From sequence record NC_001901.1: a stretch of 46,375 nucleotides of DNA. One strand, given 5' to 3'. The notes under the pieces were generated by a model, which worked only from the letters and a program-made list of their open reading frames with translations, was not told the DNA's origin and did not search any database. Source of the stretch: Escherichia phage N15. Numbering within the stretch: position 1 is the first letter of the stretch; every line of letters begins with the position of its first letter. Both the position numbers and the translations under genes were made by a program. This document shows, one piece after another, positions 2,696 through 40,494 of this stretch.

Positions 2696-4284
2696 AAATA
2701 CCATCTTTAGTGGGACCTGACGGGAAAACATCCCTTCGGGAATACGCGGGATATCATGGAGGTGGTGGCGGGTTTGGTGGTCAGCTGCGAGGCTGGAATC
2801 CGCCGAGCGAAAGTGCAGATGCAGCACTCCTTCCCAACTATTCTCGTGGAAATGCCCGCGCTGACGATCTGGTGCGAAATAATGGCTATGCGGCAAATGC
2901 CGTGCAGCTCCACCAGGACCACATCGTCGGGTCATTTTTCAGACTCAGTTATCGACCAAGCTGGCGTTATCTGGGTATTAATGAGGAAGATTCACGCGCA
3001 TTTTCGCGGGATGTGGAAGCTGCATGGAATGAGTATGCCGAGGATGACTTTTGCGGGATTGATGCCGAACGTAAGCGCACGTTTACGATGATGATCCGCG
3101 AAGGTGTGGCCATGCATGCGTTTAACGGTGAATTATGCGTGCAGGCGACCTGGGACAGCGATTCAACGCGTCTTTTCCGCACCCAGTTCAAAATGGTCAG
3201 TCCGAAGCGCGTCAGCAACCCGAACAATATCGGTGATACCCGGAACTGTCGTGCCGGTGTAAAAATCAATGATAGCGGTGCTGCGCTGGGATATTACGTC
3301 AGCGACGATGGCTATCCCGGCTGGATGGCGCAAAACTGGACCTACATCCCTCGCGAACTACCCGGCGGTCGACCTTCGTTTATCCATGTATTCGAACCGA
3401 TGGAGGATGGACAGACCCGTGGGGCCAATGCGTTTTACAGCGTGATGGAGCAGATGAAAATGCTCGACACCCTGCAAAATACCCAGCTCCAGAGCGCGAT
3501 AGTGAAGGCTATGTATGCGGCTACCATCGAGAGTGAGCTGGATACCCAATCGGCGATGGACTTTATTCTCGGTGCAGATAATAAAGAGCAGCAGAGCAAA
3601 CTGACGGGCTGGCTCGGCGAAATGGCAGCCTATTACTCTGCTGCGCCGGTTCGCCTTGGCGGGGCAAGGGTCCCACACCTGTTGCCAGGGGATTCTCTTA
3701 ACCTTCAGTCGGCGCAGGATACCGATAACGGCTATTCAACGTTCGAACAATCCCTGCTGCGTTATATTGCTGCAGGGCTGGGTGTGTCGTATGAGCAGCT
3801 TTCACGAAATTATTCGCAGATGAGCTACTCGACCGCACGCGCAAGTGCTAACGAGTCCTGGGCGTACTTTATGGGGCGTCGAAAGTTTGTGGCATCCCGA
3901 CAGGCCTGTCAGATGTTTCTTTGCTGGCTTGAAGAGGCGATTGTCCGCCGCGTGGTCACGCTTCCTTCGAAAGCCAGGTTCAGTTTCCAGGAGGCGAGAA
4001 CAGCCTGGGGGAATGCCAACTGGATTGGTTCTGGTCGAATGGCAATTGACGGTCTGAAAGAGGTGCAGGAAGCCGTCATGCTAATCGAAGCAGGTCTCAG
4101 TACGTATGAGAAAGAGTGCGCCAAACGCGGTGATGATTATCAGGAGATTTTTGCCCAGCAGGTCCGGGAATCAATGGAGCGTCGTGCTGCGGGTCTGAAC
4201 CCACCGGCATGGGCCGCTGCCGCTTTTGAGGCTGGAGTGAAAAAATCAAACGAGGAGGAGCAAGATGGCGCACGAGCTGCGTAA
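2692..4284 (+). CDS. portal protein (lambda gpB-like)
   Basis: 530 aa, position and size as lambda B; start overlaps W stop (ATGA). Confidence 0.9.
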
Positions 4285-5608
4285 TCTTCCGCATATTGCC
4301 AGTATGGCCTTTAATGAGCCACTGATGCTTGAACCCGCCTACGCGCGGGTTTTCTTTTGCGCGCTGGCTGGCCAGCTGGGTATCACCCGGCTGACAGATA
4401 CTGTCGCTGGCATCACGCTTGATGCAGGACAAATTGCCGAACCGCTGGCGTTATTTGGTGATGATGATGACATGGAACCCCGTCCATCACGCAGTTATCA
4501 AGTGGCAAATGGTGTCGCAGTTTTACCCGTTTCCGGCACGCTGGTCAGTAAAACCCGCTCGCTGCAGCCTTATTCCGGCATGACGGGTTACAACGGGATC
4601 ATCGCTCGCCTGCAGCAGGCAATCAGTGACCCCGGCGTAGATGGCATCCTGCTGGATATGGATACGCCAGGCGGAATGGTGTCCGGGGCATTTGACTGCG
4701 CCGACATTATTGCCCGTATGCGCGATATCAAACCCATCTGGGCGCTGGCCAATGACATGAACTGCAGCGCAGGGCAGCTTATTGCCAGTTCAGCATCGCG
4801 GCGGCTGGTCACACAAACGGCCAGAACCGGATCCATCGGGGTCATGATGGCGCACAGCAACTATGGTGCTGCGCTCAAAACTAACGGCGTTGAGGTCTCG
4901 CTGATTTACAGCGGCGATCACAAGGTCGACGGCAACCCTTACGAAAAACTACCAGAAGATGTGCGTGCTGATTTCCAGACGCGTATCGATGCCACTCGTC
5001 AGATGTTCGCCGAAAAGGTTTCCGCTTATACCGGTATGTCCGTTCAGGACGTACTGGACACCGAAGCGGCAGTATTCTCCGGCCAGGAGTCAGTGGACAA
5101 CGGTTTGGCGGATGAACTTGTTAACAATACCGATGCGCTCGGCGTGATGCGCGAAGCACTCGACAGACGCAAAAAAATAACCATTGGAGGAACTATGCCA
5201 TCACCTTCTGCATCAGCTGTGGCCACTAAGCCAGCTGACCAGGCAGCAACTCAGACAACTGCCTCAGCTGAACAGGTCACTACCGTTGACACGACCATTG
5301 CTTCCGTAGAGGCCCCTGTAGATGTCAGTGCGCAGGTCACTGCAGCAGTAGCTGCAGAGAATAGCCGCATCATGGGCATCCTGAACTGTGAAGAGGCGAA
5401 AGGGCGTGAGTCACAGGCGCGTGCACTGGCCGAAACGCCGGGTATGACGGTAGAGAGTGCACAGCGCATTCTGGCGGCTGCACCGCAAAGTGCCCAAGCG
5501 CGTACCGACACGGCGCTGGATCGTCTGATGGAAACAGCACCAGGCGCACTTTCAGCAGGCAGCGCATCTTCTGATGCCGCTGACGATTTGTTAAACACCC
5601 CAGTTTAA
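4265..5608 (+). CDS. head maturation protease / minor capsid protein (lambda gpC-like, S49/ClpP-like)
   Basis: 447 aa, strong RBS GAGGAGGAG, synteny after portal, Ala/Gln-rich C-terminal scaffold-like tail. Confidence 0.85.
   Translation: MAHELRNLPHIASMAFNEPLMLEPAYARVFFCALAGQLGITRLTDTVAGITLDAGQIAEPLALFGDDDDMEPRPSRSYQVANGVAVLPVSGTLVSKTRSLQPYSGMTGYNGIIARLQQAISDPGVDGILLDMDTPGGMVSGAFDCADIIARMRDIKPIWALANDMNCSAGQLIASSASRRLVTQTARTGSIGVMMAHSNYGAALKTNGVEVSLIYSGDHKVDGNPYEKLPEDVRADFQTRIDATRQMFAEKVSAYTGMSVQDVLDTEAAVFSGQESVDNGLADELVNNTDALGVMREALDRRKKITIGGTMPSPSASAVATKPADQAATQTTASAEQVTTVDTTIASVEAPVDVSAQVTAAVAAENSRIMGILNCEEAKGRESQARALAETPGMTVESAQRILAAAPQSAQARTDTALDRLMETAPGALSAGSASSDAADDLLNTPV
5195..5608 (+). 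CDS. putative nested scaffold protein (lambda Nu3-like), in-frame internal start within C
   Basis: GGAGG RBS 5 nt upstream of in-frame ATG at 5195; lambda C/Nu3 paradigm. Confidence 0.5.
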   Translation: MPSPSASAVATKPADQAATQTTASAEQVTTVDTTIASVEAPVDVSAQVTAAVAAENSRIMGILNCEEAKGRESQARALAETPGMTVESAQRILAAAPQSAQARTDTALDRLMETAPGALSAGSASSDAADDLLNTPV

Positions 5609-15341: not shown

Positions 15342-18300
15342 ATGGCTACATCTACTCCGATTAGAGGCCGCAAGGGCGGCAGCTCCAGTTCCCGCACCCC
15401 TACCGAACAACCAGACGATCTCCAGTCCGTAGCGAAGGCCAAGATTCTTGTTGCGCTGGGAGAGGGGGAATTTGCCGGGCAGCTAACGGCTAAAGATATT
15501 TATCTTGATGGCACACCACTTGAGAACGCTGATGGGTCGCAGAACTTTAGCGGCGTGGCGTGGGAGTTCCGTCCGGGGACTCAGGCTCAAAACTACATCC
15601 AGGGAATCCCCGGTACCGAGAATGAAATCAGCGTCGGTACCGAAGTTTCAAGCGCTACCGCCTGGACGCACACCTTTACCAATACCCAACTGTCAGCTGT
15701 TCGTCTGCGGCTCAAATGGCCATCGCTGTTTAAACAGGAGGACGACGGCGATCTGGTTGGCTATTCGATTAACTACGCTATTGATCTGCAGACCGATGGC
15801 GGCACCTGGCAGACGGTGCTTAATACCAGCGTAACCGGGAAAACAACATCCGGCTACGAGCGCAGCCACCGTATCGACTTACCACAGGCGGGAAGCACAT
15901 GGACGGTACGCATTCGCAAGCTCACGGCAGATGCCAATAGCGCGAAAATAGGCGACAAGATGACGCTGCAGAGCTACACAGAGGTCATTGACGCCAAACT
16001 GCGTTATCCAAATACCGCGCTGCTGTACATCGAATTCGACTCAAGCCAGTTTAACGGCTCTATCCCGCAAATATCCTGCGAACCGCGAGGGCGTGTTATC
16101 CGCGTACCGGATACTTACGACCCAGAAACCCGCACTTATAACGGCACCTGGCTGGGGACGTTTAAATGGGCATGGACTGATAATCCGGCCTGGATTTTTT
16201 ACGATCTGGTGGTGAGTGACCGCTTTGGCCTTGGCGACCGCCTGACGGCAGCAAATATTGATAAATGGACGCTTTACCAGGTTGCACAATATTGCGATCA
16301 GCCGGTACCAGACGGAAAAGGCGGTTCCGGCACCGAGCCTCGCTATACCTGTAACGTGTATGTGCAGGAGAGGAATGACGCTTATACCGTTTTGCGTGAT
16401 TTTGCGGCCATATTCCGTGGCATGACGTACTGGGGCGGCGATCAAATCGTTGCGCTGGCTGATATGCCCCGCGATGTGGATTACAGCTATACGCGCGCTA
16501 ATGTGGTTGACGGCCGTTTTACCTATTCAGGCAGCACCACGAAAACCCGCTACACCACGGCACTGGTTTCCTGGTCCGATCCGGGCAACGCCTATGCAGA
16601 CGCGATGGAGCCTGTATTTGAACAGGAACTCGTGTCCCGCTTTGGTTCAAACCAGCTCGAAATGACAGCTATTGGTTGTACCCGACAGTCAGAGGCAAAC
16701 CGTAAGGGGCGCTGGGGTATCCTGACCAATAATAAGGATCGCGTCGTATCGTTCAATGTCGGTCTGGACGGCAACATTCCACAGCCCGGTTATATTATTG
16801 CGGTTGCCGATGAGCTGCTATCCGGGAAGGTGATGGGAGGGCGTATCAGAGCGGTTAATGGTCGCGTCATTACTCTAGATCGTGATTCTGCAGCAGCAGC
16901 CGGAAGCCGCCTCATGGTTAACCTGCCGTCTGGCGCATCGCAGAGCAGGACGATACAGAGCGTAAACGGTCGGGCGGTCACCGTGACCACGGCATACAGC
17001 GAAACGCCGGAAGTAGAATCGGTGTGGATTGTCGAATCCGACGAGCTTTATGCGCAGCAATATCGCGTTATTAGCGTCGCTGATAATAATGATGGAACGT
17101 TTTCGATTTCGGGTGTTTTTCACGATCCGGATAAGTATGCCCGTATTGATACCGGCGCAATCATCGACCAGCGACCAATAAGCGTTATTCCTCCAGGTAA
17201 CCAGTCTGCGCCAGCCAATATTGTGATCAGCTCGTTTTCGGTGGTTCAGCAGAATGTCAGCGTTGAGACCATGCGCGTCAGCTGGGACCAGGCGAAAAAC
17301 GCAATTGCCTATGAGGCACAGTGGCGTCGTAATGACGGGAACTGGGTGAATGTGCCGCGCAGCTCCACCACATCCTTCGATGTTCCGGGCATTTACGCAG
17401 GACGCTATCTGGTTCGTGTGCGTGCCATAAATGCCGCCGAAATTTCGTCCGGATGGGGCTATTCAGAAGAGAAAACGCTGACGGGGAAAGTGGGCAATCC
17501 GCCAAAGCCTGTTGGATTCACGGCCACGGGCATTAACTGGGGGATTCGTCTGAACTGGGGGTTTCCGGCAAACACCGGCGATACGTTAAAAACGGAAATC
17601 CAGTACACAGCTAATAGCGACTTTTCAGATCCTTTGCTGCTTACCGACGTCCCATATCCCTCATCTGAATATATCCAGCTTGGACTGAAGGCTGGGCAAG
17701 AGTTCTGGTACCGCGCGCAGCTGGTCGACAGAACGGGTAACGAGTCCGGGTATACCGACTGGATAAGGGGGATGTCTAACGATAATGCCGATGATTATCT
17801 TGGCGATCTTGCAGACGACTTTATGAAGGCGGAGGACGGGGAGCGTCTTACCGGTGATATAGATACCAATATTGAGGGAATACTGCAGAACGCGCTGGCC
17901 AATCATGGAACAGTCGAGCATCAATGGGCGCAATACGGAGAAGTTCGTGCCGATATTCTTGTAGTCAAAACGACTATTGCTGAAGTTGACAGGGCAATGG
18001 CCGAAATGTCAACTCAGGTGCAGGCGCAGATAAGCGACGTCACTGCGGCACTGGAGGACAAACTTACCGCCGTGGTCGATGCCTCCGGCGCTTCGGCGAT
18101 CTACACCCTTAAAGCAGGCGTGAGGATAAACGGCATCATGTATAACGCAGGGATGTCGATTGCCGTTCTGGCGCAGGCAGGGCAGCCGATTGTTACCCGC
18201 GTAGGTTTCAACGCTAACCAGTTCGTGCTGATGAGTGGCAGTGGTGATACCCAGTATTCGCCGTTCGCGGTGGTTAATGGCCAGGTCTTTATCAGCTCTG

Positions 18301-21659: not shown

Positions 21660-21675
21660 CTGTATAAAAAAACAG
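21660..21675 (+). promoter_or_regulatory. LexA (SOS) box CTGTATAAAAAAACAG
   Basis: Matches CTGT-N8-ACAG consensus with AT-rich centre; upstream of UmuD'-like gene. Confidence 0.75.
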
Positions 21676-21691
21676 TTATATGGTGAGAGTT

Positions 21692-22078
21692 ATGGGATTC
21701 CCGAGCCCGGCACAGGACTACGTTGAAGAACGAATATCACTGGACAAGCTCCTCTTGACTAGGCCATCGGCTACCTACTTCATGCGCGCCGGTGCCACTC
21801 ACTATCAAGAAGGTATCCTGTACGGTGCATTGCTGGTTGTTGATGCGTCACGTACACCATGTGACGGCTCGTTACTTGTTTGCCGGATGGATGGCGAACT
21901 TAGGATAAAGCGGTACCGTAAGTCACCAACCCCTCATCTTGAGGATTTGCAAACAGGAAGAAGAGAAGAGATACCGAAATATGATGATGAAACGAGTCCG
22001 GATGCAATATTTGGCGTGATCACGTACAGCATTAACGACATGAGGTCAGGTGAATTTGATGATTGTCCAGTGTTGTAA
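21692..22078 (+). CDS. UmuD'-like protein (already lacks UmuD N-terminal arm)
   Basis: GFPSPAQDYVEERISLDKLLLTRPSATYF aligns with E. coli UmuD from the Cys24-Gly25 cleavage site onward; alternative start 21680. Confidence 0.75.
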   Translation: MGFPSPAQDYVEERISLDKLLLTRPSATYFMRAGATHYQEGILYGALLVVDASRTPCDGSLLVCRMDGELRIKRYRKSPTPHLEDLQTGRREEIPKYDDETSPDAIFGVITYSINDMRSGEFDDCPVL

Positions 22079-24774: not shown

Positions 24775-24830
24775 TATCAGCACACAATTGCCCATTATAC
24801 GCGCGTATAATGGACTATTGTGTGCTGATA
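24775..24830. other. telRL telomere resolution site: 56-bp inverted repeat with central 22-bp perfect palindrome (telO) CCATTATACGCGCGTATAATGG
   Basis: TATCAGCACACAAT...ATTGTGTGCTGATA outer arms and central palindrome read directly; matches remembered N15 telRL. Confidence 0.9.
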
Positions 24831-24994: not shown

Positions 24995-26890
24995 ATGAGC
25001 AAGGTAAAAATCGGTGAGTTGATCAACACGCTTGTGAATGAGGTAGAGGCAATTGATGCCTCAGACCGCCCACAAGGCGACAAAACGAAGAGAATTAAAG
25101 CCGCAGCCGCACGGTATAAGAACGCGTTATTTAATGATAAAAGAAAGTTCCGTGGGAAAGGATTGCAGAAAAGAATAACCGCGAATACTTTTAACGCCTA
25201 TATGAGCAGGGCAAGAAAGCGGTTTGATGATAAATTACATCATAGCTTTGATAAAAATATTAATAAATTATCGGAAAAGTATCCTCTTTACAGCGAAGAA
25301 TTATCTTCATGGCTTTCTATGCCTACGGCTAATATTCGCCAGCACATGTCATCGTTACAATCTAAATTGAAAGAAATAATGCCGCTTGCCGAAGAGTTAT
25401 CAAATGTAAGAATAGGCTCTAAAGGCAGTGATGCAAAAATAGCAAGACTAATAAAAAAATATCCAGATTGGAGTTTTGCTCTTAGTGATTTAAACAGTGA
25501 TGATTGGAAGGAGCGCCGTGACTATCTTTATAAGTTATTCCAACAAGGCTCTGCGTTGTTAGAAGAACTACACCAGCTCAAGGTCAACCATGAGGTTCTG
25601 TACCATCTGCAGCTAAGCCCTGCGGAGCGTACATCTATACAGCAACGATGGGCCGATGTTCTGCGCGAGAAGAAGCGTAATGTTGTGGTTATTGACTACC
25701 CAACATACATGCAGTCTATCTATGATATTTTGAATAATCCTGCGACTTTATTTAGTTTAAACACTCGTTCTGGAATGGCACCTTTGGCCTTTGCTCTGGC
25801 TGCGGTATCAGGGCGAAGAATGATTGAGATAATGTTTCAGGGTGAATTTGCCGTTTCAGGAAAGTATACGGTTAATTTCTCAGGGCAAGCTAAAAAACGC
25901 TCTGAAGATAAAAGCGTAACCAGAACGATTTATACTTTATGCGAAGCAAAATTATTCGTTGAATTATTAACAGAATTGCGTTCTTGCTCTGCTGCATCTG
26001 ATTTCGATGAGGTTGTTAAAGGATATGGAAAGGATGATACAAGGTCTGAGAACGGCAGGATAAATGCTATTTTAGCAAAAGCATTTAACCCTTGGGTTAA
26101 ATCATTTTTCGGCGATGACCGTCGTGTTTATAAAGATAGCCGCGCTATTTACGCTCGCATCGCTTATGAGATGTTCTTCCGCGTCGATCCACGGTGGAAA
26201 AACGTCGACGAGGATGTGTTCTTCATGGAGATTCTCGGACACGACGATGAGAACACCCAGCTGCACTATAAGCAGTTCAAGCTGGCCAACTTCTCCAGAA
26301 CCTGGCGACCTGAAGTTGGGGATGAAAACACCAGGCTGGTGGCTCTGCAGAAACTGGACGATGAAATGCCAGGCTTTGCCAGAGGTGACGCTGGCGTCCG
26401 TCTCCATGAAACCGTTAAGCAGCTGGTGGAGCAGGACCCATCAGCAAAAATAACCAACAGCACTCTCCGGGCCTTTAAATTTAGCCCGACGATGATTAGC
26501 CGGTACCTGGAGTTTGCCGCTGATGCATTGGGGCAGTTCGTTGGCGAGAACGGGCAGTGGCAGCTGAAGATAGAGACACCTGCAATCGTCCTGCCTGATG
26601 AAGAATCCGTTGAGACCATCGACGAACCGGATGATGAGTCCCAAGACGACGAGCTGGATGAAGATGAAATTGAGCTCGACGAGGGTGGCGGCGATGAACC
26701 AACCGAAGAGGAAGGGCCAGAAGAACATCAGCCAACTGCTCTAAAACCCGTCTTCAAGCCTGCAAAAAATAACGGGGACGGAACGTACAAGATAGAGTTT
26801 GAATACGATGGAAAGCATTATGCCTGGTCCGGCCCCGCCGATAGCCCTATGGCCGCAATGCGATCCGCATGGGAAACGTACTACAGCTAA
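24995..26890 (+). CDS. telN: protelomerase (telomere resolvase, tyrosine-recombinase-like)
   Basis: 631 aa starting MSKVKIGELINTLVNEVEAIDASDRPQGDK, recognised as N15 TelN; acidic C-terminal tail; adjacent to telRL. Confidence 0.95.
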   Translation: MSKVKIGELINTLVNEVEAIDASDRPQGDKTKRIKAAAARYKNALFNDKRKFRGKGLQKRITANTFNAYMSRARKRFDDKLHHSFDKNINKLSEKYPLYSEELSSWLSMPTANIRQHMSSLQSKLKEIMPLAEELSNVRIGSKGSDAKIARLIKKYPDWSFALSDLNSDDWKERRDYLYKLFQQGSALLEELHQLKVNHEVLYHLQLSPAERTSIQQRWADVLREKKRNVVVIDYPTYMQSIYDILNNPATLFSLNTRSGMAPLAFALAAVSGRRMIEIMFQGEFAVSGKYTVNFSGQAKKRSEDKSVTRTIYTLCEAKLFVELLTELRSCSAASDFDEVVKGYGKDDTRSENGRINAILAKAFNPWVKSFFGDDRRVYKDSRAIYARIAYEMFFRVDPRWKNVDEDVFFMEILGHDDENTQLHYKQFKLANFSRTWRPEVGDENTRLVALQKLDDEMPGFARGDAGVRLHETVKQLVEQDPSAKITNSTLRAFKFSPTMISRYLEFAADALGQFVGENGQWQLKIETPAIVLPDEESVETIDEPDDESQDDELDEDEIELDEGGGDEPTEEEGPEEHQPTALKPVFKPAKNNGDGTYKIEFEYDGKHYAWSGPADSPMAAMRSAWETYYS

Positions 26891-26894
26891 AAGA

Positions 26895-26927
26895 AAAGCC
26901 ACCGGTGTTAATCGGTGGCTTTTTTAT
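26895..26927. terminator. rho-independent terminator after telN
   Basis: gccaccggtgttaatcggtggc hairpin + T-run. Confidence 0.75.
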
Positions 26928-27063
26928 TGAGGCCTGTCCCTACCCATCCCCTGCAAGGGACGGAAGGATTAGGCGGAAACTGCAGCTGCAACTACGGACA
27001 TCGCCGTCCCGACTGCAGGGACTTCCCCGCGTAAAGCGGGGCTTAAATTCGGGCTGGCCAACC

Positions 27064-27858
27064 CTATTTTTCTGCAATCGCTGGCGATGTTAGTTTCGTG
27101 GATAGCGTTTCCAGCTTTTCAATGGCCAGCTCAAAATGTGCTGGCAGCACCTTCTCCAGTTCCGTATCAATATCGGTGATCGGCAGCTCTCCACAAGACA
27201 TACTCCGGCGACCGCCACGAACTACATCGCGCAGCAGCTCCCGTTCGTAGACACGCATGTTGCCCAGAGCCGTTTCTGCAGCCGTTAATATCCGGCGCAG
27301 CTCGGCGATGATTGCCGGGAGATCATCCACGGTTATTGGGTTCGGTGATGGGTTCCTGCAGGCGCGGCGGAGAGCCATCCAGACGCCGCTAACCCATGCG
27401 TTACGGTACTGAAAACTTTGTGCTATGTCGTTTATCAGGCCCCGAAGTTCTTCTTTCTGCCGCCAGTCCAGTGGTTCACCGGCGTTCTTAGGCTCAGGCT
27501 CGACAAAAGCATACTCGCCGTTTTTCCGGATAGCTGGCAGAACCTCGTTCGTCACCCACTTGCGGAACCGCCAGGCTGTCGTCCCCTGTTTCACCGCGTC
27601 GCGGCAGCGGAGGATTATGGTGTAGAGACCAGATTCCGATACCACATTTACTTCCCTGGCCATCCGATCAAGTTTTTGTGCCTCGGTTAAACCGAGGGTC
27701 AATTTTTCATCATGATCCAGCTTACGCAATGCATCAGAAGGGTTGGCTATATTCAATGCAGCACAGATATCCAGCGCCACAAACCACGGGTCACCACCGA
27801 CAAGAACCACCCGTATAGGGTGGCTTTCCTGAAATGAAAAGACGGAGAGAGCCTTCAT
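27064..27858 (-). CDS. antirepressor with N-terminal Bro-N domain
   Basis: IRVVLVGGDPWFVALDICAALNIANPSDALRKLD is a typical Bro-N signature; RBS GGGGAGG. Confidence 0.75.
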   Translation of the reverse strand: MKALSVFSFQESHPIRVVLVGGDPWFVALDICAALNIANPSDALRKLDHDEKLTLGLTEAQKLDRMAREVNVVSESGLYTIILRCRDAVKQGTTAWRFRKWVTNEVLPAIRKNGEYAFVEPEPKNAGEPLDWRQKEELRGLINDIAQSFQYRNAWVSGVWMALRRACRNPSPNPITVDDLPAIIAELRRILTAAETALGNMRVYERELLRDVVRGGRRSMSCGELPITDIDTELEKVLPAHFELAIEKLETLSTKLTSPAIAEK

Positions 27859-28085
27859 TGCGCCTCCCCGGATTTCAGCTGCTCAGAAAGGGACAGGGAG
27901 CAGCCGCGAGCTTCCTGCGTGAGTTCGCGCGCGACCTGCAGAAGTTCCGCAGCTTCCTGCAAATACAGCGTGGCCTCATAACTGGAGATAGTGCGGTGAG
28001 CAGAGCCCACAAGCGCTTCAACCTGCAGCAGGCGTTCCTCAATCGTCTCCAGCAGGCCCTGGGCGTTTAACTGAATCTGGTTCAT
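27855..28085 (-). CDS. small protein in antirepressor operon (76 aa)
   Basis: RBS GAGG 5 nt upstream; overlapping start/stop with neighbours. Confidence 0.55.
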   Translation of the reverse strand: MNQIQLNAQGLLETIEERLLQVEALVGSAHRTISSYEATLYLQEAAELLQVARELTQEARGCSLSLSEQLKSGEAQ

Positions 28086-28246
28086 GCGATCACCTCGCTG
28101 ACCGGGATACGGGCTGACAGAACGAGGACAAAACGGCTGGCGAACTGGCGACGAGCTTCTCGCTCGGATGATGCAATGGTGGAAAGGCGGTGGATATGGG
28201 ATTTTTTGTCCGTGCGGACGACAGCTGCAAATTTGAATTTGAACAT
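28082..28246 (-). CDS. small protein (about 54 aa), first gene of antirepressor operon; start uncertain
   Basis: AGGA RBS 9 nt before ATG at 28246; longer ORF to 28384 runs into the terminator. Confidence 0.35.
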   Translation of the reverse strand: MFKFKFAAVVRTDKKSHIHRLSTIASSEREARRQFASRFVLVLSARIPVSEVIA

Positions 28247-28411
28247 GGTATGCATTCCTATCTTGTATAGGGTGCTACCACCAGAGTTGAGAATCTCTAT
28301 AGGGGTGGTAGCCCAGACAGGGTTCTCAACACCGGTACAAGAAGAAACCGGCCCAACCGAAGTTGGCCCCATCTGAGCCACCATAATTCAGGTATGCGCA
28401 GATTTAACACA

Positions 28412-28489
28412 CAAAAAAACACGCTGGCGCGTGTTGTGCGCTTCTTGTCATTCGGGGTTGAGAGGCCCGGCTGCAGATTTTGCTGCAGC
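28412..28489 (-). ncRNA. candidate small regulatory RNA / attenuator leader: promoter (TTGACG-18-TAGAGT) followed about 75 nt later by intrinsic terminator
   Basis: -35 at 28525-28520, -10 at 28501-28496, hairpin aacacgc/gcgtgtt + U-run at 28435-28412 on - strand; N15 immA and P4/P1 immunity RNA paradigm. Confidence 0.45.
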
Positions 28490-28613
28490 GGGGTAACTCT
28501 ACCGCCAAAGCAGAACGCACGTCAATAATTTAGGTGGATATTTTACCCCGTGACCAGTCACGTGCACAGGTGTTTTTATAGTTTGCTTTACTGACTGATC
28601 AGAACCTGATCAG

Positions 28614-28964
28614 TTATTGGAGTCCGGTAATCTTATTGATGACCGCAGCCACCTTAGATGTTGTCTCAAACCCCATACGGCCACGAATGAGCCACTGGAA
28701 CGGAATAGTCAGCAGGTACAGCGGAACGAACCACAAACGGTTCAGACGCTGCCAGAACGTCGCATCACGACGTTCCATCCATTCGGTATTGTCGACGACC
28801 TGGTAAGCGTATTGTCCTGGCGTTTTTGCTGCTTCCGAGTAGCAATCCTCTTCACCACAAAGAAAGTTACTTATCTGCTTCCAGTTTTCGAACCCTTCTT
28901 CTTTGAGCCGCTTTTCCAGCTCATTCCTCCACAAAACAGGCACCCATCCTCTGCGATAAATCAT
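28614..28964 (-). CDS. hypothetical membrane protein (last gene of repA operon)
   Basis: RBS AAAGGA; hydrophobic C-terminal segment LWFVPLYLLTIPFQWLI. Confidence 0.5.
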   Translation of the reverse strand: MIYRRGWVPVLWRNELEKRLKEEGFENWKQISNFLCGEEDCYSEAAKTPGQYAYQVVDNTEWMERRDATFWQRLNRLWFVPLYLLTIPFQWLIRGRMGFETTSKVAAVINKITGLQ

Positions 28965-28966
28965 GA

Positions 28967-29296
28967 TTATTTGTCCTTTAAATAAGGCTGTAGAACTGCA
29001 AAATCGCTCTCGTTCACATGCTGTACGTAGATGCGTAGCAAATTGCCGTTCCATCCCTGTAATCCACCTTCTTTGGAAAGATCGTCCTTGACCTCACGAA
29101 GAACCTTATCCAATAGCCCTGCGGCACAAGAAATTGCCTGCTCTGGATCAGCAAATTCATATTGATTAATAGGTGATTGCCACACACCAAAAACAGGAAT
29201 CATCTTTTCGGCTAAACGCCTCTCCTGTTCTTTCTTAATCTCAAGTTGTAAGCGGACCAGCTCACCATCCATCATTTTTTGTAGATCATGCGCCAC
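28967..29296 (-). CDS. hypothetical protein
   Basis: Tightly packed with neighbours; RBS-like GGGGGTGA. Confidence 0.5.
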   Translation of the reverse strand: MAHDLQKMMDGELVRLQLEIKKEQERRLAEKMIPVFGVWQSPINQYEFADPEQAISCAAGLLDKVLREVKDDLSKEGGLQGWNGNLLRIYVQHVNESDFAVLQPYLKDK

Positions 29297-29299
29297 TAT

Positions 29300-29629
29300 T
29301 CACCCCCACTGGCCATCAGCAAATAAAGCTTCATACTCGGACACCGGCAGGCGGCTTCCACGGATTGAAAGGTCAAGCCAACCACGTCCAGATGGGTCAG
29401 CCTTATCCGATTCTTCCCACCGTTCTGCAGCTGTAGCAACCAGGCATTCTACCGCCTTCATGTAGTCTTCTGTACGGAACCAGCCGTAGTTAATGCCACC
29501 ATCAGTAACTGCCCAGGCCATCTTTTTCTCTTCGGCCTCAATAGCCCGGATGCGGTTATCGCACAGCTCGCGACAGTACTTCAGCTGTTCGTAATCCAGT
29601 TGCTTCAGGAACTCTGGTGTCGACGTCAT
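29300..29629 (-). CDS. hypothetical protein
   Basis: Tightly packed, AAGGTGA upstream. Confidence 0.5.
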   Translation of the reverse strand: MTSTPEFLKQLDYEQLKYCRELCDNRIRAIEAEEKKMAWAVTDGGINYGWFRTEDYMKAVECLVATAAERWEESDKADPSGRGWLDLSIRGSRLPVSEYEALFADGQWG

Positions 29630-29874
29630 AGTGGCTTCACCTTATAGGCTTTTAGAAGCGCCCTGGCTTCGTCTGTGTGGTCTTCCATGCTCTTATCGCT
29701 GGCAATGCAGCAATAAACTCCCTCACTATCTGAGAACCCGTTCATCCGAATGATCGTGAATGGAAGTTCCCGGCCAGTTTTATAATCGCTATAGCTTGTC
29801 GCGTCGTGGCTGACCTTGACCACATAAGGGTCGTAGCCCTCCACGATGACAAGGCATTCCCGTTGTTTTCCCAT
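29626..29874 (-). CDS. hypothetical protein (82 aa) immediately downstream of repA
   Basis: GGAGGGG RBS; ATG 11 nt after repA stop. Confidence 0.5.
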   Translation of the reverse strand: MGKQRECLVIVEGYDPYVVKVSHDATSYSDYKTGRELPFTIIRMNGFSDSEGVYCCIASDKSMEDHTDEARALLKAYKVKPL

Positions 29875-29885
29875 TACCCCTCCGG

Positions 29886-32800
29886 TTATATCGCCACGGC
29901 TTGCCGCTGGCTTAGAAACGCTTTCAGCAGCCTTATTTCGCGTACTGATAGCAGGTCCATAAATTCGGTCATGTACAGCGAGGCGAACGTTCTCGCGATG
30001 CTGGCCACTGGCCACAGGCGTACCGCCTCCATTTCGGTTGCTGGCAACGCGTTCTCCGCCCACGCCTCCGGTACCGCCACCGGGATAGCCTCCAGTGCCT
30101 GGATAATTACTGATTGTGGGGCGTCCGGAACGTGCTCTGTTTTGGATCGAGGGTTACCATGTATATCTATATTTAGATCCAAATCGCGATCCACTTCGAT
30201 GGTGGTTTTTTCCACCTTACGTGCGTGAATTGATAAACCGGCCTCGCGGCGCTTCTCCACGATATTCATGAGGAACTCGACCGAGTCCGGGTCAATGGAA
30301 CGCATCGTGGGGCGTGCATCGCCGTCTCTGGCGCGTCTGGTCTTACTGGATAGCCCCATAGACTCCAGGATGCCTATGCAGAGGTCTGCAGGCGCTTTCT
30401 TCTTGCCTTTCTCTGTGTTGAAGCCGCCGATGCGTAAAACGTTGTTTAGCAGATCGCGCCGTTCCGGCGTGAGCAGGTTATCTCTGGCGCGTTTGAGGGC
30501 GTCCATGTCTGCTTCACCTTCCAGGGTTTTTGGATCGATACCGCAGTCGCGGAAGTACTGCTGCAGCGTCGCCGATTTGAGGGTGTAGAAACCACGCATG
30601 CCTATCTCAACAGCAGGGGTCGATTTCACTCGGTAATCGGTTATGGCCGGGAATTTAGCCTGGAACTCTGCGTCGGCCTGTTCCCGCGTCATGGCCGTAG
30701 TGACGAACTGCTGCCATCTTCCGGCAACGCGATAAGCGTAGGTAAAGTGAATCAACGCTTCTTCACGGTCAAGGCGACGGGCGGTTATCTCATCCAGCTG
30801 CATGGTTTCAAACAGGCGCACTTTTTTCAGGCCGCCGTCGAAATAGAATTTTAACGCCACCTCGTCGACATCCAGCTGCAGCTCCTTTTCGATGTCCCAG
30901 CGGACCAGCTGGGCCTGCTCATCCAGGGACAGGGTGCGTTTTTTTATCAACTCATCGTGTTCGGCCTGGTCAGGAGTATCGACACTCAGGTGGCGCTCCA
31001 TAAGCTGCTCAAAGACCAGTTCACGGGCTTCTTTACGTAAATCCTTACCGATGCTGTTTGCAAGCGCGTCGGTGGCCATAGGCGCGACCTGATAGCCATC
31101 ATCATGCATGATGCAAATCATGTTGCTGGCATAATCATTTCTGGCCGATGCCTCGAGCGCGGCGGCTTTAATTTTGAGCTGCATGAATGAAGAGTTAGCC
31201 ACGCCGAGTGAAATTCGGTCACCGTCAAAGACAACGTCTGTCAGCAGCCCGGAGTGGCCAGCCGTTTCGAGCAAGGCCTGCGCGTAGGCGCGTTTGATTT
31301 TTTCCGGATCGGTTTCACGTTTACCGCGAAGCTTGTCGAAACCGATAATGTATTCCTGAGCTGTACGGTCGCGGCGCAGCATCTGGATGGCGTCGCTGGG
31401 GACCACTTCGCCGCAGAACATGCCGAAATGGCGGTGGAAGTGTTTCTCCTCAATCGATACACCTGAAGATATCGACGGGCTGTAGATGAGGCCGTCATAT
31501 TTTTTCACCATCACTTTAGGCTGGTTGGTGAAATCGTCGACTTCCTTCTCCTGTTTGTTTTTCTGGTTAACGCAGAGAAACTTTTTGTCAGGGAACTGTA
31601 GTCTCAGCTGCATGGTAACGTCTTCGGCGAACGTCGAACTGTCGGTGGCCAGCATGATTCGTTCGCCGCGTTGCACTGCAGCGATAACCTCGGTCATGAT
31701 CCGATTTTTCTCGGTATAAAATACGCGGATAGGCTTGTTGGTTTCGCGGTTGCGAACGTCGACCGGGAGTTCAATCACGTGAATTTGCAGCCAGGCAGGT
31801 AGGCCCAGCTCCTCGCGTCGCTTCATCGCCAGTTCAGCCAGGTCAACAAGCAGATCGTTGGCATCGGCATCCACCATAATGGCATGCTCTTCAGTACGCG
31901 CCAGCGCGTCGATAAGCGTGTTGAATACGCCTACCGGGTTTTCCATCGCACGCCCGGCCAGAATGGCACGCAGGCCCTGTGTTGCTTCATCGAAGCCGAA
32001 GAAGTCATGCTGGCGCATCAGCGGTTGCCAGCAGCCTTTAAGTATGGAGTTGATGCAAATAGTCAGCTTGTTGGCATATGGCGCCATTTCCTGATAGCCG
32101 GGATCCTGATAATGCAGAATGTCGGCTTTCGCGCCTTTCCCTTCGGTCATCATTTCATGCAGGCCGCCTATCAGGGATACGCGGTGCGCGACGGAAACGC
32201 CACGCGTGGACTGCAGCATCAGTGGACGCAGGAGGCCTGTCGATTTACCCGACCCCATCCCGGCGCGGACAATAACGATGCCCTGCAGCTGTGCGGCGTA
32301 TGTCATCACCTCATCGGTCATCCTGGAGGTTTCAAACCGTTTGTAAGTGATGTGTGACGGGCGAAGGTTCGGGTTGGTGATGCGTTCACTGAACGAACGT
32401 GATGTTTGCGCGGCACGGCATTTGCGATTCAACCGGCGCGTAATGTGATCTTTAACGGTACCGTTATAAATTTCTGCGATACCCATATCCCGCAGCGTGC
32501 TGCTGAAAAGGCGCATAAGTTCTTTCGGGCTGTTTGGTACCGGGCATGTCAGCATGCCAATATCAACGGCGCGAAGCAGTTCTTTGGCAAAAGTGCGTCT
32601 GTTCAGACGCGGGAGAGTACGCAGCTTATTCAGCGTGATCGACAACAGGTCGGTTGCACGGCTCAGATGATTTCTCGTTAACTGGCGAGCGACTTCCTTC
32701 AGCCCTCTCAGGCTGTGCAGGTCGTTAAAATCGCTGCATTCCAGCTCAGGGTCATCCTCAAAAGTTGGGTAAACACATTTGACGCCGGAAAACTTCTCCA

Positions 32801-34078: not shown

Positions 34079-34094
34079 TTATAGTCAGCAATAA
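34079..34094. promoter_or_regulatory. palindromic site TTATAGTCAGCAATAA upstream of repA (operator candidate)
   Basis: Same TTAT(A/T)-N6-(T/A)ATAA architecture as the two sites in the cB-cro intergenic region. Confidence 0.4.
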
Positions 34095-34108: not shown

Positions 34109-34717
34109 TCATCTACCCTCAACCATGAACGATTTGATCGTACCGACTACTTGGTGCACAAATTGAAGATCACTTTTATCATGGATAACCCGTTGAGAGT
34201 TAGCACTATCAAGGTAGTAATGCTGCTCGTCATAACGGGCTAATCGTTGAATTGTGATCTCGCCGTTATTATCACAAACCAGTACATCCTCACCCGGTAC
34301 AAGCGTAAGTGAAGAATCGACCAGGATAACGTCTCCCGGCTGGTAGTTTCGCTGAATCTGGTTCCCGACCGTCAGTGCGTAAACGGTGTTCCGTTGACTC
34401 ACGAACGGCAGGAATCGCTCTGTGTTGGCAGGTTCTCCAGGCTGCCAGTCTCTATCCGGTCCGGTCTCTGTCGTACCAATAACAGGAACGCGGTCTGGAT
34501 CAGATTCAGTGCCATACAGTATCCATTGCACGGGCTTACGCAGGCATTTTGCCAGCGATAGCCCGATCTCCAGCGACGGCATCACGTCGCCACGTTCTAA
34601 GTTTTGGACGCCCGGAAGAGAGATTCCTACAGCTTCTGCCACTTGCTTCAGCGTCAGTTTCAGCTCTAAACGGCGTGCTTTCAGTCGTTCGCCTCGTGTT
34701 TTCATACCCTTAATCAT
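34109..34717 (-). CDS. cB: CI-like prophage repressor (N-terminal HTH, C-terminal S24-like fold with catalytic dyad substituted)
   Basis: LTLKQVAEAVGISLPGVQNLERG HTH; C-terminal ..VGNQIQ..PGDVILVD...EITIQRL aligns to lambda CI/LexA but Ser and Lys are replaced. Confidence 0.85.
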   Translation of the reverse strand: MIKGMKTRGERLKARRLELKLTLKQVAEAVGISLPGVQNLERGDVMPSLEIGLSLAKCLRKPVQWILYGTESDPDRVPVIGTTETGPDRDWQPGEPANTERFLPFVSQRNTVYALTVGNQIQRNYQPGDVILVDSSLTLVPGEDVLVCDNNGEITIQRLARYDEQHYYLDSANSQRVIHDKSDLQFVHQVVGTIKSFMVEGR

Positions 34718-34728
34718 AAATGATCTCT

Positions 34729-34744
34729 TTATAGCTGGCTATAA
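34729..34744. promoter_or_regulatory. operator-like palindrome TTATAGCTGGCTATAA in cB-cro intergenic region
   Basis: 7-bp inverted arms read directly; between divergent cB and cro. Confidence 0.55.
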
Positions 34745-34777
34745 TTTTTATAAATTATACCTAGCTTTAATTTTCAC

Positions 34778-34793
34778 TTATTGATTATAATAA
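34778..34793. promoter_or_regulatory. operator-like palindrome TTATTGATTATAATAA just upstream of cro
   Basis: 5-bp inverted arms; same architecture as 34729 site. Confidence 0.45.
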
Positions 34794-34798
34794 TCCCC

Positions 34799-35014
34799 AT
34801 GAAACCCGAAGAACTTGTGCGCCATTTCGGCGATGTGGAAAAAGCAGCGGTTGGCGTGGGCGTGACACCCGGCGCAGTCTATCAATGGCTGCAAGCTGGG
34901 GAGATTCCACCTCTACGACAAAGCGATATAGAGGTCCGTACCGCGTACAAATTAAAGAGTGATTTCACCTCTCAGCGCATGGGTAAGGAAGGGCATAACA
35001 GTGGAACTAAATAG
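34799..35014 (+). CDS. cro: Cro-like repressor
   Basis: 71 aa, divergent from cB, HTH GVTPGAVYQWLQAG. Confidence 0.75.
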   Translation: MKPEELVRHFGDVEKAAVGVGVTPGAVYQWLQAGEIPPLRQSDIEVRTAYKLKSDFTSQRMGKEGHNSGTK

Positions 35015-39563: not shown

Positions 39564-39579
39564 CTGTGTTTATATACAG
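39564..39579 (+). promoter_or_regulatory. LexA (SOS) box CTGTGTTTATATACAG
   Basis: CTGT-N8-ACAG with AT-rich centre, immediately followed by TATTAAAT (-10-like). Confidence 0.7.
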
Positions 39580-39603: not shown

Positions 39604-39831
39604 ATGGTATACGATTCAATGACAGATGCAGCCGTGTCATGTTGTGAAAAACTTGATTCCCAGCTAAGCGATCTCGATGCTGTCCTGGATATGGTGAGCA
39701 CCGTTATGGCCTCACCAGAGGCCAGCCTTCATATGAATGAGGCGGCACGTCTTCTGCGCATGTCTCGTAATATGGTCCACAGATGCAAGGATGTTGTCGC
39801 GGATGAGCTCATTCGGCAGGCTGGCGAATAA
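39604..39831 (+). CDS. small protein (75 aa) under LexA box; candidate SOS-inducible antirepressor
   Basis: First ORF downstream of LexA box; N15 is reported to be induced via an SOS-regulated antirepressor, but assignment to this ORF is my inference. Confidence 0.4.
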   Translation: MVYDSMTDAAVSCCEKLDSQLSDLDAVLDMVSTVMASPEASLHMNEAARLLRMSRNMVHRCKDVVADELIRQAGE

Positions 39832-39895: not shown

Positions 39896-40183
39896 TCAAT
39901 ACACAGCATGAATATCAATGCTTGCACCGCAAGCCTTAGCGTATCGAGATAGTGTCTTCATGCTGGCACCTAGTGGGTTGCTTTCCAGGCGGCTAATTGC
40001 TGATGGCTGCAACCCCATGCGTTCAGCCAGCGCAGACTTCGTCAGGCCAGCTTTCTCCCTCATCTCGTAGAGCATTTCAACCATCGCCAACTCCTTGTCG
40101 GCATCTTCGTAACCCCGGATAGCCTCCGGGGTATTGAGCAGTTCTTCTTTCACCTGATTAAATGGGATGCCTTTTACTTTCAT
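39896..40183 (-). CDS. HTH (XRE-family) antitoxin, HigA-like
   Basis: 95 aa; LTKSALAERMGLQPSAISRLE HTH; ATG overlaps toxin stop (TAATG). Confidence 0.75.
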   Translation of the reverse strand: MKVKGIPFNQVKEELLNTPEAIRGYEDADKELAMVEMLYEMREKAGLTKSALAERMGLQPSAISRLESNPLGASMKTLSRYAKACGASIDIHAVY

Positions 40184-40494
40184 TAGCTCATCTCCTTCAG
40201 ACGCGTTCTGGCGATATCAATTGCGTGGGTAGGCGTCTTTTGCGTCTTCTTAACAAATGCATGTAGCAGATAAATTTCGTTACCTACCGCGTAAGCGTAC
40301 AGCGTTCTCGCTATGTTTTTATCCCCTACCCTTAGTTCGAAAAGGCCACCACCGATAACGCGGCTATGAGGCATTTTCAGCTTGTTCCCTTCACTTTCCA
40401 GTCTCTCGATCAGCCGGGTCATGCGACCGCGTAGCTCATCAGGTAATTCTTTAAGCTCATCCAGCGCTGCCGGGTGGGTTATCACGTTAAACAT
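40183..40494 (-). CDS. RelE/ParE-superfamily toxin, HigB-like (toxin-first operon)
   Basis: 103 aa from ATG 40494 with AGGAGG RBS; LKMPHSRVIGGGLFELRV...LYAYAVGNEIYLLHAFVKKTQKTP typical of this family. Confidence 0.75.
   Translation of the reverse strand: MFNVITHPAALDELKELPDELRGRMTRLIERLESEGNKLKMPHSRVIGGGLFELRVGDKNIARTLYAYAVGNEIYLLHAFVKKTQKTPTHAIDIARTRLKEMS

Follow-up and report, generated by a model that had tools for sequence, protein, structure and literature searches.

The cB locus and its surroundings

The window analysed comprises the whole genome of coliphage N15 (46,375 bp), in which the repressor gene cB lies on the minus strand and is flanked by cro and Q (Table 1). The segment 33900-35100 is 100% identical to GenBank record U45242, the N15 immB record, where the open reading frame is annotated as "cB: repressor protein", and the product CB matches the PHROG 4 transcriptional repressor with an E-value of 9e-32. 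The 1324-aa repA, telN and other N15 landmarks are also present in the window. Open reading frames on the plus strand that overlap cB, such as the one of 120 aa at 34422-34784, are antisense to this conserved gene and were rejected as unsupported.

The listed open reading frame of the divergent gene cro opens at a TTG at 34781, and the start at the ATG at 34800 that we give in Table 1 is our own reading. Pattern searches of the cB-cro intergenic region returned three palindromic operator-like sites that resemble TTATAG-N4-CTATAA; their centre-to-centre spacings are 26 and 23 bp, values close to those of lambda. One further site, of the OL type, was found between cB and repA. Published work on N15 describes 16-bp operators, three OR and two OL (PMC4997575). 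With an XRE-type helix-turn-helix repressor, a divergent cro and multiple intergenic palindromes, the locus has the composition of a lambda-type CI/Cro switch. The operator-like pattern was also matched by TTATACGCGCGTATAA, a perfect 16-bp palindrome at 24795-24810, about 140 bp upstream of telN, which in all likelihood is the central part of telRL/telO, where telomeres are resolved, and not a CB operator.

Table 1 Features of the cB locus and of the antirepressor loci in the N15 genome (window coordinates).
Feature	Position	Strand	Basis or remark
cB, N15 prophage repressor	34109..34717	(-)	202 aa; stop codon 34109-34111; ORF list
XRE/Cro-C1-type helix-turn-helix domain, aa 12-66	34520..34684	(-)	Pfam HTH_3, E 7.8e-12
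Peptidase_S24-like C-terminal domain, Pfam core aa 106-175	34193..34402	(-)	PF00717, 35.9 bits, E 6.7e-9
Vestigial cleavage site Thr85-Gly86	34460..34465	(-)	Opposite Ala-Gly of QAGP relatives and LexA AAGE; pairwise and multiple alignments
Gln120 codon CAG, at the S24 nucleophile Ser position (LexA S119, CI S149)	34358..34360	(-)	Nine GDSM relatives aligned
Gln157 codon CAA, at the general-base Lys position (LexA K156, CI K192, UmuD K97)	34247..34249	(-)	All alignments
cro, lytic repressor, divergent from cB	34800..35014	(+)	Pfam P22_Cro, E 1.1e-22
Three 16-bp palindromic operator-like sites, cB-cro intergenic	34729..34793		Pattern searches
Operator-like site TTATAGCTGGCTATAA	34729-34744		Pattern search
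Operator-like site TTATACCTAGCTTTAA	34755-34770		Pattern search
Operator-like site TTATTGATTATAATAA	34778-34793		Pattern search
OL-type operator-like site TTATAGTCAGCAATAA, between cB and repA	34079..34094		Pattern searches
LexA (SOS) box CTGTGTTTATATACAG	39564..39579		Exact CTGT-N8-ACAG; 25 nt upstream of antC ATG
antC, 75-aa antirepressor of CB, SOS-controlled	39604..39831	(+)	PHROG 6301 (E 1.4e-26), PHROG 10889 'anti-repressor' (E 1.2e-8)
immA anti-immunity operon	27064..28384	(-)	ORFs; without LexA box
immA first ORF, 100 aa (icd in literature)	28082-28384	(-)	ORF list
antB, 76 aa, AntC paralogue	27855-28085	(-)	PHROG 6301 (E 1.6e-30), PHROG 10889
antA, Bro-N antirepressor	27064-27858	(-)	Bro-N E 4.2e-19; PHROG 130 anti-repressor Ant

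Domains and fold of CB

The first-pass annotation had described the cB product as an XRE-type helix-turn-helix protein with a C-terminal domain resembling that of CI and LexA, and our profile and structure searches bear this description out. Both domains are recognised by Pfam with scores above its thresholds, the gathering score for Peptidase_S24 being 23.3 bits. In a search of PDB sequences, the helix-turn-helix domain matches DdrO, P22 C2 and the N-terminal domains of 434 Cro/cI. The same kind of search with phmmer, using CB or its C-terminal domain alone, returned at best weak matches to UmuD (E ~0.01).

An AlphaFold2 model of CB, computed with 27 family members as input, has a mean pLDDT of 85.3 and predicts five helices (aa 8-68) followed by a beta-rich C-terminal domain with strands at aa ~76-194. 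Foldseek searches of the PDB with this model placed the lambda repressor at the top (3bdn, 8gmu, 2ho0) and LexA next (1jhe, 1jhh, 8gms), with a probability of 1.00; 1kca and the LexA structure 3jso were further matches. Among these, 3bdn is the full-length lambda repressor, and the group 2ho0, 8gmu and 1kca comprises fragments of lambda CI and the complex with RecA. The N-terminal domain of the model matched P22 C2, 434 Cro and DdrO. The profile match, the fold and the homology along the full length to relatives that carry the motifs make CB a structural homologue of the S24 proteins.

Substitution of the self-cleavage residues

To place the catalytic positions we aligned CB with nine relatives of 40-46% identity that retain the dyad (P0065, P0067-P0073 and P0077). 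At three gap settings, the nucleophile Ser falls on Q120, the general-base Lys on Q157 and the Ala of the cleavage site on T85. The Ser of G-D/N-S-M and the Lys of TVK(R/K)L had both been read as Gln from the sequence of CB alone, and the alignments place these two residues at Gln120 and Gln157. Read by eye, the plus-strand triplets ctg and ttg at these positions give CAG (Q120) and CAA (Q157) on the minus strand.

The Lys column is occupied by Gln157, within ITIQRL, in every alignment, be it with close relatives, LexA, lambda CI or UmuD and by MAFFT, HMMER or pairwise comparison. The Ser register against the distant references slips by one residue, with N119 opposite UmuD (HMMER), Q120 opposite lambda CI and I121 opposite LexA, and none of these three candidates is a Ser; there is no Ser anywhere in residues 116-124 of CB (TVGNQIQRN). 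The alignment with UmuD was reproduced on PDB chains. A one-column shift of GDSM in the large MAFFT alignments was dropped, since the nine pairwise alignments to intact relatives give Q120.

All three sequence elements of an active S24 autopeptidase, namely the Ser of G-x-S-M, the strand Lys and the Ala/Cys-Gly scissile bond, are missing from CB. The alignments confirm that the residues needed for self-cleavage are all substituted, and the change of the scissile Ala-Gly to Thr85-Gly86 is an extension of the earlier observation on the dyad. Because Ser, Lys and scissile Ala-Gly are all lost, CB would be unable to sense DNA damage itself.

These results agree with published work. For the CB proteins of phiKO2 and N15, Hammerl 2016 (PMC4997575) states that neither a site for RecA cleavage nor the Ser and Lys that are essential was detected. 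In vivo, an N-terminal HALO fusion of the N15 repressor, HALO-cI(N15), was non-proteolytic under ciprofloxacin, and the VP882 repressor used as control was cleaved (Silpe 2023, PMC10432266, Fig. 1b). The proposal that RecA cannot make the repressor cleave itself has in effect already been put to an SOS test in that study, and it survived.

Relatives of CB and the decay of the triad

A profile search retrieved full-length relatives with 40-46% identity to CB in which QAGP, (V/I/M)GDSM and (I/V)K(R/K)L are kept. One of them, P0070, has an intact triad and occupies the position of cB, flanked by cro-Q and, on its other side, by a repA of 1308 aa and telN, on N15-like contigs of 43 kb. Since these orthologues keep the motifs and P0070 lies at the same genomic position, CB descends from an intact autopeptidase.

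Within the CB clade, the Ser column contains Q, L or V and the Lys column Q, F, Y, L, M or G, while L115, Y125, G128, D129, L132, D134, G142, R176 and G192, which are fold residues, are invariant. This pattern of drifting catalytic columns and invariant fold residues points to relaxed catalytic constraint with structural constraint retained.

In a neighbour-joining tree, drawn without support values, the half-decayed repressors P0074/75 and P0066 are nested inside the intact clade. P0074/75 keep the Ser (GNSI in P0074) and carry Gln for Lys, and P0066 carries Thr for Ser (GDTT) and keeps the Lys; both have Thr-Gly at the cleavage site. Full decay is seen in the N15 clade and in a third one (P0053-55, 58, 63, 76 and 78). 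This distribution in the tree suggests at least three independent decays of the triad among CB relatives.

Frameshifted or shortened cB alleles were also seen in Klebsiella and Enterobacter assemblies (P0026, P0027, P0039, P0038, P0045, P0050, P0056, P0059 and P0060). Several of these encode 141-145 aa, with the helix-turn-helix domain alone left, and in others the linker or the helix-turn-helix region is scrambled. Defective prophages or assembly errors may account for these alleles.

antC, the immA operon and the LexA box

The motif CTGT-N8-ACAG occurs three times in the N15 genome (at 10823, 21660 and 39564), against 0.49 occurrences expected by chance. The third of these sites lies at antC, a small gene outside the immunity region that in this way carries a consensus SOS box at its promoter. 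A simple scanner called no sigma-70 consensus promoter around the box, and AntC matched no family in Pfam.

Mardanov and Ravin (2007), as relayed in PMC3121763 and PMC4488713, identified AntC as a LexA-controlled antirepressor of the N15 repressor, and antC is described in the literature as the gene that initiates N15 induction. Binding of LexA to CTGTGTTTATATACAG and of AntC to CB is taken from the published work in this summarised form. Together, the position of the box upstream of antC and the published role of AntC support the proposal that N15 is induced through an antirepressor.

Directly downstream of antC and convergent with it, at 39896-40494 (-), is a pair of genes encoding a Gp49 protein (HigB/RelE-like, Pfam E 8.5e-30) and an HTH_3 protein (E 1.4e-12), which is probably a toxin-antitoxin module. 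The same Gp49/HTH pair adjoins the LexA-boxed AntC homologue of a distant relative, locus L004.

The Bro-N operon had also been counted by the first-pass annotation among the loci that fit induction by an antirepressor. This stands in part: the operon is real, and AntA has a Bro-N domain (E 4e-19). The whole-genome search found no CTGT-N8-ACAG at or near it, all three sites being elsewhere, and since it lacks a LexA box the immA operon is not part of the SOS route. The literature treats immA as a separate anti-immunity locus controlled by a small processed RNA. The operon is a second, SOS-independent route to CB inactivation.

The second gene of this operon, antB, has a function that is described in the literature as not elucidated. 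AntB and AntC give a Smith-Waterman score of 70, compared with 24 +/- 4.5 for shuffled sequences (~10 SD above), and have the common core EA(S/T)L..(N/Q)EAA.LL; BLASTP with composition adjustment returned no AntB-AntC alignment. The common PHROG matches and the score above shuffles lead us to regard the two proteins as homologous. This paralogy suggests that the same small-protein family may serve both N15 antirepression routes.

The antA/antB/icd operon occupies the repA-telN interval in N15 (26890-29886) and in L004. In four loci with intact or half-decayed repressors (L001, L002, L005 and L006), the interval contains no antA/antB/icd operon and 0-1 small open reading frame. This variable content fits the published view of the interval as a slot for induction modules.

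Co-occurrence of triad loss and AntB/AntC-family genes

The association between repressor state and antirepressor was then assessed across the family. We fetched 159 loci, on contigs encoding homologues from the protein searches and from IMG/VR, and the N15 window was added as the sixtieth CB-family locus, with membership of the family set at >=33% identity. The state of the triad was assigned by alignment to an intact relative, AntB/AntC-family open reading frames within 10 kb were identified by jackhmmer, and SOS boxes were searched. An open reading frame was called LexA-boxed when an exact CTGT-N8-ACAG ended <=40 nt upstream of its called start or overlapped that start.

A LexA-boxed AntB/AntC-family open reading frame was present at 49 of the 57 CB-family loci with a decayed triad; five others had a family member without an exact box, and three had neither. 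Neither element was found at the three CB-family loci with an intact triad, nor at any of the 79 loci of distant S24 repressors with an intact triad. The co-occurrence runs in the direction predicted by the first-pass annotation. Most of the loci are N15/phiKO2-like, and the counts are therefore not phylogenetically independent and amount to a small number of separate evolutionary contrasts. Within the CB family, just three loci with an intact triad are available because the IMG/VR scan seeded with the intact clade returned only distant S24 repressors (25-34% identity) and missed the intact sister clade.

Two of the five loci without an exact box end at a contig edge. A third, L003, carries a one-mismatch LexA box, CTGTTTATTAATCCAG, followed by dinI (Pfam DinI, E 6e-12) and an AntB/AntC-family open reading frame (jackhmmer E ~1e-14), at 4185-4690 (-); its telomere-phage repressor has 35% identity to CB and lacks the dyad. 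In L004, whose repressor is a 52%-identity relative, AntC is divergent, with 31% identity over 45 aa, and its gene lies behind a perfect LexA box.

The loci of the half-decayed repressors, L005 (P0066) and L006 (P0074), which come from N15-like telomere phages, have no AntB/AntC-family open reading frame and no SOS box beside a small gene in the ~17 kb covered around the repressor gene, from telN to the terminase. L005 has a perfect LexA-type box, CTGTTATATTTTACAG, at 16676, within the annotated 5' end of telN.

Discussion

Our results make it very probable that CB, the repressor that maintains N15 as a linear plasmid prophage, is a lambda-CI-like protein that has lost self-cleavage, and that SOS induction of N15 proceeds through the LexA-controlled antC; no observation speaks against this model. 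CB is best classed as an S24 homologue that is not a peptidase, inside a CI/Cro switch of the lambda type to which an induction module of the N15 LexA/AntC type is coupled.

In the mechanism that we propose, the N-terminal helix-turn-helix domain of CB would bind the 16-bp palindromic operators, three of which lie in the cB-cro interval, with others upstream of repA. The dead S24 domain presumably keeps its fold so that CB can dimerise and bind its operators cooperatively, as lambda CI does. Because CB has lost its catalytic residues and its cleavage site, DNA damage would induce N15 by way of a LexA-controlled antirepressor. Host LexA would read the SOS signal, occupying the consensus box over the antC promoter; once LexA is cleaved, the 75-aa AntC would be made, bind CB non-covalently, probably in a stoichiometric manner, and take it off its operators. 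The immA operon would provide the SOS-independent route through the Bro-N protein AntA and the AntC paralogue AntB.

A different explanation is that CB still cleaves itself with a non-canonical nucleophile and base, so that activated RecA (RecA*) inactivates it directly and AntC is merely accessory. The S24 fold is retained, and Thr116, whose side chain has a hydroxyl group and which precedes the Ser position by four residues, could be imagined in such a role. The scissile Ala-Gly is gone as well, however, and within the clade the dyad columns also contain L, V, F, Y, M and G, a freedom that catalytic residues would not be expected to show. Together with the absence of N15 repressor proteolysis under SOS in an experiment in which the VP882 control was cleaved (PMC10432266), which largely refutes this explanation in vivo, these observations leave non-canonical self-cleavage highly improbable. 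It is even harder to credit that the S24 similarity of the C-terminal domain is convergent or due to chance, the domain being an unrelated beta-rich oligomerisation module; we give this almost no weight. Direct sequence matches to solved S24 structures are indeed weak (UmuD, E ~0.01) and the TM-scores of the whole model are low, the latter because the two domains of CB are oriented differently. These points are outweighed by the Pfam match above the gathering score, by the Foldseek probability of 1.00 to the C-terminal domains of lambda CI and LexA, and by a continuous series, at 35-46% full-length identity, to proteins with QAGP, GDSM and IKRL at the same genomic position.

Somewhat less remote, yet still very unlikely, is an SOS induction of N15 that depends mainly on the Bro-N operon (antA/antB) and not on antC. 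AntA strongly matches phage Ant antirepressors and AntB is a paralogue of AntC, both of which would suit an inducing role. Against this, the exact LexA-type sites at 10823, 21660 and 39564 leave the operon without a box at or near it, and the literature, for antC as summarised in the citing articles, places immA under a small processed RNA and gives antC as the initiator of induction. Induction through LexA and antC, with CB unable to cleave itself, is accordingly the reading that we retain.

CB has the same overall plan as lambda CI, P22 C2 and LexA, with an N-terminal DNA-binding domain, a linker and an S24 beta-domain, and with lambda CI and P22 C2 it also has in common the XRE-type helix-turn-helix. 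The divergent cro and the three intergenic operators make N15 resemble a lambda-type switch. CB differs from these three proteins in that Ser, Lys and Ala-Gly are all substituted and, by the published experiment under ciprofloxacin, RecA-dependent proteolysis is absent. The cI gene of VP882-type telomere phages occupies the same position as cB, beside repA-telN in linear plasmid prophages; unlike CB, its product keeps the dyad and is cleaved on SOS. To our knowledge, the CI of coliphage 186 and the Gifsy repressors are not S24-domain proteins, unlike CB. N15 is like coliphage 186 (Tum) and Salmonella Gifsy-1/-3 (GfoA, GftA) in that the repressor is uncleaved and a LexA-repressed small antirepressor gene lies outside the immunity region (PMC3121763). 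AntC itself belongs to PHROG 6301 and 10889, and the order LexA box-dinI-AntC-like gene in L003 brings to mind phage 186, in which the Tum antirepressor is fused to DinI.

The decay of CB, its resistance to proteolysis and its AntC-mediated induction are already published, in line with the remark in the first-pass annotation that its reading was consistent with reports on N15. Since this biology is established, its confirmation adds no new knowledge for N15; the induction mechanism was nonetheless correctly inferred from the raw sequence at that first stage. Repressor classification by catalytic residues also has a precedent, as Silpe 2023 classed 271 repA-telN phage repressors in this way, found 210 to be putatively non-autoproteolytic, and noted N15-like repA-telN loci in most of the phages that were excluded (PMC10432266). 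Our analysis adds the mapping of T85, Q120 and Q157 by means of intact orthologues and the family co-occurrence count. What is new beyond this is the graded decay series, the paralogy of AntB and AntC, the AntC-like operon linked to dinI and another degenerate S24 protein in the N15 genome.

The cB locus offers a textbook-style handover of SOS sensing from a phage repressor to host LexA and a small antirepressor, an arrangement that allows cross-talk between prophages and additional inputs for induction. The by-products of this analysis are incremental and might aid the mapping of transitions from autocleaving to antirepressor-controlled repressors. We put forward, as a tentative and rather doubtful idea, that such transitions are recurrent and coupled among the repressors of telomere phages, with loss of the triad accompanied by gain of an AntB/AntC-family gene, and that the vestigial cleft and uncleavable linker of CB serve as the docking surface for AntC/AntB. 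If this idea were correct, the phages with the P0066 and P0074/75 repressors would be induced by some further input.

The second degenerate S24 protein of N15 is encoded by a UmuD-like open reading frame of 132 aa within window positions 21660-22078 (+), which matches Pfam S24 with 36.6 bits and PHROG 811 (UmuD-like) with an E-value of 2e-48 and has 38% identity to E. coli UmuD. In this protein, Thr40 lies opposite the catalytic Ser60, and Lys77 is retained. The open reading frame starts at the equivalent of the Cys24/Gly25 cleavage site of UmuD (MVRVM-GFPSP...), and its product would therefore be a ready-made UmuD'. The start of this open reading frame is preceded, 5 nt upstream, by a perfect LexA box, CTGTATAAAAAAACAG, which occupies 21660-21675.
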